The notes beneath the pieces were generated by a model. The model was not told the origin of the DNA and searched no databases. It saw nothing but the letters and a program-made list of their open reading frames with translations. Shown piece by piece: positions 5,403 through 6,832 of a stretch of 64,000 nt of DNA; the first letter of the stretch is position 1, and each line of letters begins with the position of its first letter. Source of the stretch: an uncultured Saprospiraceae bacterium (GTDB lineage Bacteria; Bacteroidota; Bacteroidia; Chitinophagales; Saprospiraceae); assembly GCA_964525915.1 (NCBI GenBank), contig CAZGKN010000002.1:1194-65193 (forward strand), read 5' to 3'. The translations under genes were made by a program, and so were the position numbers.

Positions 5403-6832
5403 ATGAAAACAAAAATTGTCTTTATCCTGATACTTACAATTGCCTTGCTTACTATGAGCCATTTTCATAGATGGAGCAATCATTCTGTACTTAAATGGGA
5501 TGCTTTTGGCTATCACAATTATCTACCTGCGGTATTTATTTATCATGATATTACTTCTTATCTGTTTTTGGATCATATTGATTCTGTGTATCAACCTGCT
5601 AGTGTGCCCAAATATGGCTTATATCCGGTAAGGAGTTTAGAAAGCTCTAAATCGTACACACACACACACACACACACACACACACACACACACAGGCCGC
5701 ATTGGTTGACTCATCCCGTCTTTGTAATCAGTATCCTGTAGGTGTTTCAATCTTTCAATTACCTGGGTTCCTGATTGCCCATGCGTGGACGGTATGGTCC
5801 GGCAAACATTTTGCAGACGGATATTCCAAGCCCTATCAACAGGCAACCGCATATTCCACTTTATTATTTGGATTTTTAGGACTAATATTTCTTTTTTTAT
5901 TAATAAGACGATATTTCTCAGAGAATATCTCTCTATTAACTGTTTTGCTAATCGCTGGTGGTACCAATATCACCAATTATTGGATTATAGAGACGGGATA
6001 TTCGCATGTTTATTTGTTTTTTCTGTATGCTGTAATGCTGTATATTACTGACAGTTGGTTTCGAACACCAAGGTGGCATTTAGCTGCGCTGATTGGGTTG
6101 GTTATTGGTTTGGCGACGATTACCCGACCAGTGGATATATTTATTTGCCTGATCCCTGTGTTATGGATTTTTTCAGTTAGAGATAAGTGGGAGTTTATCC
6201 AGACACATAGGAAACATATAATGTTTCTTTTGCTTAGCGCATTTGTCATGACCTGGCCGCAGTTGATTTATTGGAAGTATGTTACCGGGTACTGGTTTTA
6301 TTATTCCTATTCAGGCGTTGATTATTTTGAATTTGACCGATTCAGATTGATTCATGGCCTGATTAGCTTTCGCAAAGGTTGGTTTGTTTACACTCCATTG
6401 GCGTTAATAGCCTTTATCGGTATTTTTCATTTCCGTTTACAAGGTAATTTGTTGTTTTATAAGCGTGTATTTTGGTTCTATTTTATACCAGTTCTTTATT
6501 TGGTCTTCTCCTGGCACAATTGGTTCTATGGATGGAGTTATGGATGCAGAGCATTGATCCAGACTTTGCCTCTTCTCGCTATTCCACTGGCTAATTTATT
6601 ACAGAAAATGGTCAGTTTTAATCTATTGAAAAAGTTTTCAGTCAGTGTAATATTAGTATTTATATTCTTTCTGAATATTTTTCAGAATGACCAATATAAT
6701 CGCGGAATTATTCATGGTGCATCGATGAATGAGACATTGTACTGGAGTGTGTTTTTGAAAAATGAAAGACCTCCAAATTTTGATCAGGTGCTGAAATTGC
6801 AGGAAGAGATTGACTGGGCCATGGGTTGGTAA
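5403..6832 (+). pseudogene. ArnT/PMT-like polytopic membrane glycosyltransferase, split by a frameshift inside a (CA)19 tract
   Basis: ORFs 5403..5741 and 5702..6832 overlap across the CA tract; the second frame is open from 5651. The N-part has TM1 plus WDAFGYHNYLPAVFIYHD. The C-part continues with QYPVGVSIFQLPGFLIAHAW and many further TM helices. Loss of one CA unit or gain of two fuses them into one ~475-aa ORF. Confidence 0.6.
5656..5694. repeat. dinucleotide microsatellite (AC)19 inside a coding region
   Basis: Uninterrupted acacac... run counted directly from the sequence. Translates as (Thr-His)n in two frames. Confidence 0.98.

Follow-up and report, generated by a model that had tools for sequence, protein, structure and literature searches.

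The 64,000-nucleotide window analysed here comes from an uncultured Saprospiraceae bacterium (GenBank assembly GCA_964525915.1, contig CAZGKN010000002.1) and carries, at positions 5403 to 6832, a gene for a predicted polytopic membrane glycosyltransferase whose reading frame is split by a long CA microsatellite. An initial annotation, made from the letters of this DNA, had named the gene a candidate phase-variation switch, and this proposal is supported by tract-length alleles in public metagenome assemblies, by invariant flanking sequence and by a natural allele that restores the frame. We regard the gene as a simple sequence repeat (SSR) contingency locus, switched by slipped-strand phase variation, with a probability of about three in four. 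The gene is made up of the following features, where ON and OFF denote alleles with and without one continuous frame.

5403..6832, plus strand: the whole proposed phase-variable gene, here in the OFF state (open reading frames, frame arithmetic, homologues and structural model)
5403..5741, plus strand: OFF-state N-terminal product of 112 residues, with transmembrane helix 1 (TM1, residues 2-21) and the start of extracytoplasmic loop 1 (open reading frame, alignment and model)
5640..5713, plus strand: lineage-specific insertion, residues 80-103, ESSKSY-(TH)n-QAALVDS (24 gap columns in all 39 homologues)
5651..6832, plus strand: downstream reading frame, transmembrane helix 2 (TM2) onward, matching residues 85-475 of the fused protein (open reading frame scan and Pfam)
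5656..5694, no strand assigned: uninterrupted (AC)19.5 tract of 19 CA units, the proposed hypermutable element (Tandem Repeats Finder and allele comparison)

The CA tract and its reading frames

Tandem Repeats Finder describes the run at 5656-5694 as 39 nt of AC repeated 19.5 times with 100% matches, the same uninterrupted run that the initial annotation had described. The upstream open reading frame (ORF) begins with an ATG and ends at a TAG (5739-5741), 47 nt past the tract, while the downstream frame is open from 5651, directly behind a TAA at 5648-5650; both boundaries are as had been claimed. At the tract length found in the window the downstream frame is not in register with the start codon of the gene, and its earliest start codon of its own is a TTG at 5702, giving an ORF of 376 residues (5702..6832). 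Replacing the tract in silico shows how the two frames are joined. Tracts of 31, 37 and 43 nt (15, 18 and 21 CA units) yield a single ORF of 473, 475 and 477 residues, which confirms the earlier calculation that the loss of one unit or the gain of two would give one ORF of ~475 residues. Tracts of 29, 35 and 41 nt run into a stop after 'GRIG' and give products of 98-102 residues, and the 39-nt allele of the window gives the 112-residue product. Translation in the OFF lengths thus stops 12 or 47 nt past the tract, and neither half of the gene contains extra stops. As a pure intragenic repeat whose unit is not a multiple of three, the tract shifts the frame with each change in unit number, as expected of an SSR contingency locus.

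The tract stands apart from the rest of the genome (3.28 Mb in 254 contigs, 40% G+C, all scanned for repeats). Dinucleotide runs number 5079 at three units, 307 at four, 30 at five, and one each at six, seven and 19 units. The CA tract is therefore the sole dinucleotide run of more than seven units in 3.28 Mb, and it is not a chance feature.

Translation also upholds the claim that (Thr-His)n is encoded across the tract, and does so for all frames. This property bears on a highly improbable account of the OFF alleles, in which RNA-polymerase slippage or ribosomal frameshifting still yields full-length enzyme from them and the tract tunes its amount. With Thr-His in every frame, a slipped product would be nearly identical to the in-frame one, and a recent preprint reports for SSR genes of Mycoplasma bovis that frameshift mechanisms induced by slippage can act in combination (10.64898/2026.04.01.715767). 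Against such recoding, no frameshift-stimulating heptamer or downstream structure was noticed at the locus. Homopolymeric A/T runs are established sites of productive transcriptional slippage, which CA dinucleotides are not known to be.

Tract length varies in an otherwise invariant locus

The initial annotation had suggested comparing repeat length and frame among related strains. Exact scans of metagenome and genome contigs for the two flanks, 17-47 nt apart, gave no match in collections that appear to lack records close to the genome of the window. The same locus was recovered from six further public metagenome assemblies by exact-protein look-ups with the ORF fragments and the neighbouring FtsZ and FabH, making seven assemblies with the window and five tract lengths (29, 35, 37, 39 and 41 nt). 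All alleles were read from consensus assemblies and are as follows.

JGI 3300007484: tract 41 nt, 20 CA units, OFF
JGI 3300045365: tract 39 nt, 19 CA units, OFF
JGI 3300009870: tract 39 nt, 19 CA units, OFF
Window assembly: tract 39 nt, 19 CA units, OFF
ENA ERZ22666204: tract 37 nt, 18 CA units, ON, 475-residue ORF
ENA ERZ22665968: tract 35 nt, 17 CA units, OFF
ENA ERZ27275241: tract 29 nt, 14 CA units, OFF

Every allele is pure, and the lengths differ by whole CA units. A MAFFT alignment of the seven loci, up to 7.4 kb long, varies in 12 columns; every one of them falls within the tract, and no substitution or indel is seen outside it. Two of the ENA assemblies, both from DTU and with near-identical 346-kb contigs, differ at the tract (37 versus 35 nt). 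In a control region of 10.7 kb, ~55 kb away and aligned across nine assemblies, there is one single-nucleotide polymorphism (window 58272, T to A, in ERZ27275391 only) and there are no indels, a T9 homopolymer at 60880 being constant in all nine; assembly noise is therefore low and the lineage near-clonal. Since at least four tract changes stand against one substitution in ~18 kb, we infer that the tract mutates at a rate several orders of magnitude above that of base substitution. The CA tract is the exceptional mutable site in a nearly clonal organism.

Both coding states occur naturally. The 37-nt allele encodes a 475-residue protein (P0126) identical to the in-frame translation of the window gene, and the alleles of 29, 35, 39 and 41 nt are truncated. 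This repeat-number polymorphism among otherwise identical genomes, with five lengths, invariant flanks and one in-frame allele, is what phase variation predicts. In the protein collections, the 90%-identity cluster of the 376-residue product also contains a 475-residue member and N-terminal fragments of 98 and 100 residues. For a 376-residue variant with one Pro-to-Leu change (P0124), the source locus was not found.

It is very improbable that these lengths are a technical artefact, with PCR stutter, sequencing error or assembler choice disguising a gene that is in truth uniformly in frame or uniformly broken. Stutter is known for dinucleotide repeats in amplified libraries, and the tract is hard to assemble, as seen in Logan contigs (k=31) from many further runs, which end inside it with 27-30 nt of repeat; such ends are expected for k=31, show only that the tract is long, and were left out of the allele count. 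Against an artefact, three independent assemblies agree on 39 nt, a length that is reproducibly assembled, and where k=127-141 was used, the assembled contigs cross the whole tract into unique flanking sequence. The alleles also lie up to six units apart (29 versus 41 nt), whereas stutter usually shifts a consensus by one unit, and the nine assemblies show no indel in the control region, its T9 homopolymer included.

Several further observations were made in the same collections. Judged from window positions 2402-9832 and 55162-64000, the organism is almost clonal over no fewer than 8-10 metagenomes, which stem from separate projects (JGI, ENA and Logan). For each of its FtsZ, FabH and one hypothetical protein, the collection has entries in ~50 blocks. 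Contigs of two independent assemblies, JGI 3300009870 and SRR6032602, end within 8 nt of each other (window ~5539-5547), ~110 nt upstream of the tract, and another contig of JGI 3300009870 begins 101 nt upstream of it. These breaks, some 100 nt upstream of the tract, were considered as a sign of heterogeneity within a sample and rejected as such, as they are uninterpretable without the identity of the assemblers; strain or allele heterogeneity in the assembly graph could produce them, and so could coincidence. Public gene calls split the locus according to allele, into products of 98, 100, 102 or 112 residues plus 295 or 376 residues, together with spurious antisense ORFs of 37-85 residues. 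Because the calls depend on the allele, this member of the family is hidden in annotation unless an ON allele is sampled.

Both halves belong to one Bacteroidota family

A split gene of this kind could also be two neighbouring genes of unrelated families, a question that had been raised with the original proposal. The comparisons argue for one family. With the in-frame translation as query, BLASTP finds more than 100 full-length homologues in single ORFs of ~440-475 residues, with up to 51% identity and 95-100% query coverage, nearly all of them without a name, along with the 376-residue product of the window itself. When whole genomes of relatives are searched, the same open frames are matched by the N-terminal part and by the C-terminal part. 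A scan of contigs from one genome per species confirmed at least 562 relatives among the first 599 candidate stretches. Of the 80 loci kept, 79 are labelled Bacteroidota (Chitinophagales, Saprospiraceae, Flavobacteriales and Sphingobacteriales), the remaining one being a metagenome-assembled genome labelled 'uncultured Bifidobacterium sp.'. By sequence comparison, then, both halves are one gene of a widespread, unnamed Bacteroidota family. The ON protein retains all 24 invariant residues of the 40-member family alignment.

A GT-C fold with an insertion in extracytoplasmic loop 1

The initial annotation had called the product ArnT/PMT-like, which holds at the level of the GT-C fold and not at that of a specific family. 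An AlphaFold2 model of the ON protein, built from a 40-sequence alignment, has ~11-13 long helices, a mean predicted local distance difference test score (pLDDT) of 91.9 and a predicted template-modelling score (pTM) of 0.93. All Foldseek matches in the PDB with a probability of at least 0.9 are GT-C enzymes (STT3, ArnT 5EZM, AglB, ALG12, ALG9, PglB, PimE, EmbA/B, AftA and Pmt4), with template-modelling scores (TM-scores) of 0.4-0.5 overall and identities of 10-15%. ALG12 matches with TM-scores of 0.50/0.50, while the match to ArnT 5EZM (E=4e-3, TM-scores 0.40/0.36, 13% identity) is no better than those to oligosaccharyltransferase or ALG enzymes. The product is thus a polytopic membrane protein with a fold like that of solved GT-C enzymes. 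The Pfam profile PMT_2 (PF13231) scores a marginal 27.4-28.1 bits against a cut-off of 26.1 for the ON protein and the downstream half, and is matched in only two of 40 family members at E <=0.01. No ArnT-type profile was matched in Pfam or NCBIfam, the NCBIfam search of the protein returned no match, and a profile search of PDB sequences matched no chain.

The hallmark of GT-C enzymes is an acidic residue conserved in extracytoplasmic loop 1, and that of the PMT family is a DE motif (PMC8698208). The former is present here as Asp33, which with Tyr37 lies in a WDxxGYHNYLPA motif 12 residues after TM1, both residues being invariant in 40 of 40 sequences; Asp33 is the putative catalytic residue. 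The latter is not, as the sequence reads W-D33-A-F and the residue after the Asp varies across the family. A MIR domain, which together with the DE motif would mark a PMT, was likewise not seen, nor was any other extra domain, in the Pfam scan of the protein and its family. By these TM-scores and identities, the protein is a member of the GT-C superfamily that falls in none of its characterised families, and we do not assign it specifically to PMT/GT39 or ArnT/GT83. A lipid-linked sugar donor is presumed by analogy with other enzymes of this fold.

The model places the tract between TM1 (residues 2-21) and TM2 (residues 113-132), in agreement with the earlier assignment to the first extracytoplasmic loop. 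Here, the insertion forms the tip of a predicted beta-hairpin (strands 73-77 and 100-108) and is the only low-confidence part of the model, with a pLDDT of 52-56 for residues 81-100 and at least 85 for the rest of the loop. No comparable SSR occurs in homologous genes across 1.0 Mb of fetched loci, which led us to reject the possibility that such tracts recur throughout the family. Because the insertion is species-specific, absent in the 39 homologues and modelled with low confidence, the switch appears to ride where a variable peptide should be tolerated, and (Thr-His)n of variable length should be accommodated there. The tract also lies downstream of the putative catalytic Asp33, so that in OFF alleles the putative catalytic loop would be severed from the membrane part of the enzyme.

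Gene neighbourhood and other repeats

The gene lies between ftsZ (3745..5169) and a convergent fabH-like gene (6878..7864). Two elements were read in the interval behind ftsZ.

5334..5353, plus strand: G+C-rich, terminator-like hairpin with a T run behind it, downstream of ftsZ (sequence)
5373..5380, plus strand: weak candidate promoter element, TATATTTA (read from the sequence)

The hairpin at 5334-5353 implies that the glycosyltransferase gene has a promoter of its own within 5354-5402, and the gene seems to be monocistronic. The Bacteroidota -7 promoter consensus is TAnnTTTG, from which the candidate element TATATTTA, 22 nt upstream of the ATG, departs by one mismatch. In the same-genus genomes, neither the gene nor fabH follows ftsZ.

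A second TMTC/PMT-like gene had been reported as intact at 23602..25614. It is intact, and it lies on the minus strand. Its 670-residue product is TMTC-like, in that a PMT_2 membrane domain is combined with TPR repeats at the C-terminus and DUF1736 is faintly matched, and as a paralogue of the switch gene it was rejected, the two not being closely related. Elsewhere in the window, three ParE/YoeB-type toxin genes lie within ~8 kb (~55475-55960 and 61930-63700) around a block of unannotated ORFs, two of them partnered with DUF2683 and one with an unannotated 74-residue ORF; the cluster possibly marks a mobile or defence island.

Most of the other SSRs of this genome are heptamers outside genes. 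Heptanucleotide repeats of 4-8 copies lie between genes on genome contigs C6 (23603-23630 and 23827-23854), C23 (16363-16397), C89 (1-56), C63 (2591-2625) and C103 (5175-5202), with related units (TTGTGAA, GTGAATT and TGAATTG; GCCCAAA and CCAAAGA). On contig C18 (4233-4262, minus strand), six copies of AGCAA either directly precede a lipoprotein-like ORF with the signal peptide MAWSHLNLLMIMSALLFTHC or belong to an N-terminal extension of it, a possible second repeat-controlled surface gene. On contig C249 (1006-1019), an ORF for a PP2C/SpoIIE-like phosphatase has a (GA)7 run close to its N-terminus, read as ERERE; this run is short and probably stable.

A proposed phase-variation switch

The mechanism we propose begins with slipped-strand mispairing in replication, which would add or remove CA units. 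Poly-CA/TG tracts were reportedly found by Levinson and Gutman in 1987 to frameshift at high frequency in E. coli. With 15, 18 or 21 units the start codon would be in frame with the whole gene, giving a GT-C-fold membrane glycosyltransferase of 473-477 residues whose extracytoplasmic loop 1 tolerates a disordered (Thr-His)n insertion that varies in length. Other unit numbers would yield a stub of 98-112 residues, comprising TM1 and that part of the loop in which the invariant Asp33 lies; lacking the remaining ~10-12 membrane helices, this stub would probably be without function and the enzyme OFF. One length class in three would be ON. Switching within a population would be rapid and reversible, leaving a mixture of cells with and without one sugar modification on an envelope acceptor (a lipid, polysaccharide or protein), and such a mixture would serve as bet-hedging against a fluctuating pressure directed at the surface. 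SSR phase variation of this type has been reviewed (PMC11868660).

The acceptor, the donor and the selective agent are each putative. For a wastewater or freshwater bacterium, phage adsorption would be the most plausible pressure, as suggested by Pmt-dependent infection with phiC31 and by O-antigen glucosylation in Salmonella. Loss of Pmt makes Streptomyces resistant to phiC31 (PMC8698208), and phase-variable O-antigen glucosylation is described as a transient defence of Salmonella against phage (Kim and Ryu 2012, cited in PMC9733650).

Several observations weigh against such a switch. One of seven assemblies is ON, which is compatible with the neutral expectation of one third (probability of at most one in seven, 0.26), and this proportion does not point to selection for the ON state. 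Purifying selection on the coding sequence is undemonstrable in assemblies that are so nearly clonal, and PCR stutter in library preparation is common for dinucleotide tracts. Six of seven same-genus genomes lack the gene, which is therefore dispensable, and the sole same-genus homologue, at 51% identity, lies elsewhere in its genome and is not syntenic. A conserved neighbourhood was not found, the neighbourhoods of three homologues sharing nothing, and neither a donor synthase (GT2) nor a flippase partner was found adjacent to the gene in the window or in the homologue neighbourhoods.

Some of these points would equally suit a dispensable gene in early decay, in which the microsatellite drifts neutrally and chance ON alleles confer nothing; the OFF state of six of seven assemblies, the absence from most of the genus without synteny, and the lack of functional partners nearby all lean this way. 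We consider early decay unlikely. All tracts are pure at 14-20 units, whereas neutral tracts would gain interruptions and shrink, and the tract sits exactly at a structurally tolerant position. The ON protein has kept every family-invariant residue and is modelled with confidence, and a second lesion is found in neither half of the gene in any assembly, a point whose weight is limited by the near-clonality of the samples.

The principle of SSR phase variation, to which we assign the locus, is already well known (PMC11868660, PMC2651432, PMC10564699, PMC3498834), and in host-adapted pathogens it is a textbook subject. What is new is the setting in an uncultured, widely distributed member of the Saprospiraceae, a target enzyme with the GT-C fold, and the length of the CA repeat and its place within a loop insertion specific to the lineage. 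Described phase variation in Bacteroidota runs through DNA invertases, and there is hardly any record of SSR phase variation from uncultured environmental bacteria, or from Bacteroidota beyond the invertase systems of gut Bacteroides (PMC11868660); in the literature collection searched, no work pairs 'Saprospiraceae' with 'phase variation'. We tentatively suggest that this may be the first documented SSR contingency locus in the Saprospiraceae and in free-living environmental Bacteroidota, controlling a GT-C-fold envelope glycosyltransferase of an uncharacterised family and built by a species-specific loop insertion, with a tract length that could be read as an ON/OFF record of surface-directed selection, most plausibly by phage. 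If true, the presence of the organism in dozens of public metagenomes would make this natural record available over samples and time. The locus is a concrete site for measuring bet-hedging in engineered or natural communities by amplicon or long-read sequencing. It also provides a functional handle on a large unnamed GT-C family, and it is a caution for annotation pipelines, which call the gene as two or three unrelated small ORFs.

Comparison with known systems

One close likeness in layout is to the outer-membrane protein genes oipA/hopH, hopZ and sabA of Helicobacter pylori, where a dinucleotide repeat in the 5′ coding region switches the frame of a surface-related gene by slipped-strand mispairing, and where strains vary in repeat number and switch status (PMC10564699, PMC4205683). 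There, the repeat is CT, lies in the signal-peptide region and controls an adhesin or porin of a host-restricted pathogen, whereas the present repeat is CA, lies in a periplasmic loop and belongs to a polytopic GT-C enzyme of an uncultured environmental Saprospiraceae bacterium. In lic2A, lgtC, lex2A, pglA/E/H and polyG-tract genes of Haemophilus, Neisseria and Campylobacter, an SSR likewise lies inside a glycosyltransferase ORF, for lipooligosaccharide, lipopolysaccharide or protein glycosylation, and generates stochastic heterogeneity of surface glycans (PMC2651432, PMC5953494, PMC11868660). These are soluble or peripheral GT-A or GT-B enzymes that use nucleotide sugars, and are switched by mono-, tetra- or pentanucleotide repeats in host-adapted organisms, whereas the present gene combines a GT-C fold, with its presumed lipid-linked donor, and a dinucleotide repeat of 14-20 units. 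A long dinucleotide repeat within a coding region also sets the frame of the Type III mod genes of Mycoplasma, with intragenic (AG)n (for example MmyCI), where it is a DNA methyltransferase that is switched (a phasevarion) instead of an enzyme of the envelope (PMC3498834).

In function, the gtrABC operons for O-antigen glucosylation in Salmonella and Shigella offer a close parallel, with phase-variable glycosylation at the periplasmic face by a polytopic membrane transferase (GtrC, of GT-C type) and a benefit shown in the form of transient phage resistance (Kim and Ryu 2012, as cited in PMC9733650). They differ in that switching is epigenetic, through Dam and OxyR at the promoter, and not by SSR, and in that they are clustered with a GT2 synthase and a flippase, neither of which was found beside the present gene. 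With the solved GT-C enzymes (ArnT 5EZM, STT3/PglB/AglB, ALG9/ALG12 and PMT), the protein shares the multi-helix membrane fold, a conserved Asp right after TM1 and a long first extracytoplasmic loop with juxtamembrane helices. It is set apart from them by TM-scores of only 0.4-0.5 at 10-15% identity, and by a build that does without the DE pair, the MIR domain and the periplasmic C-terminal domain.

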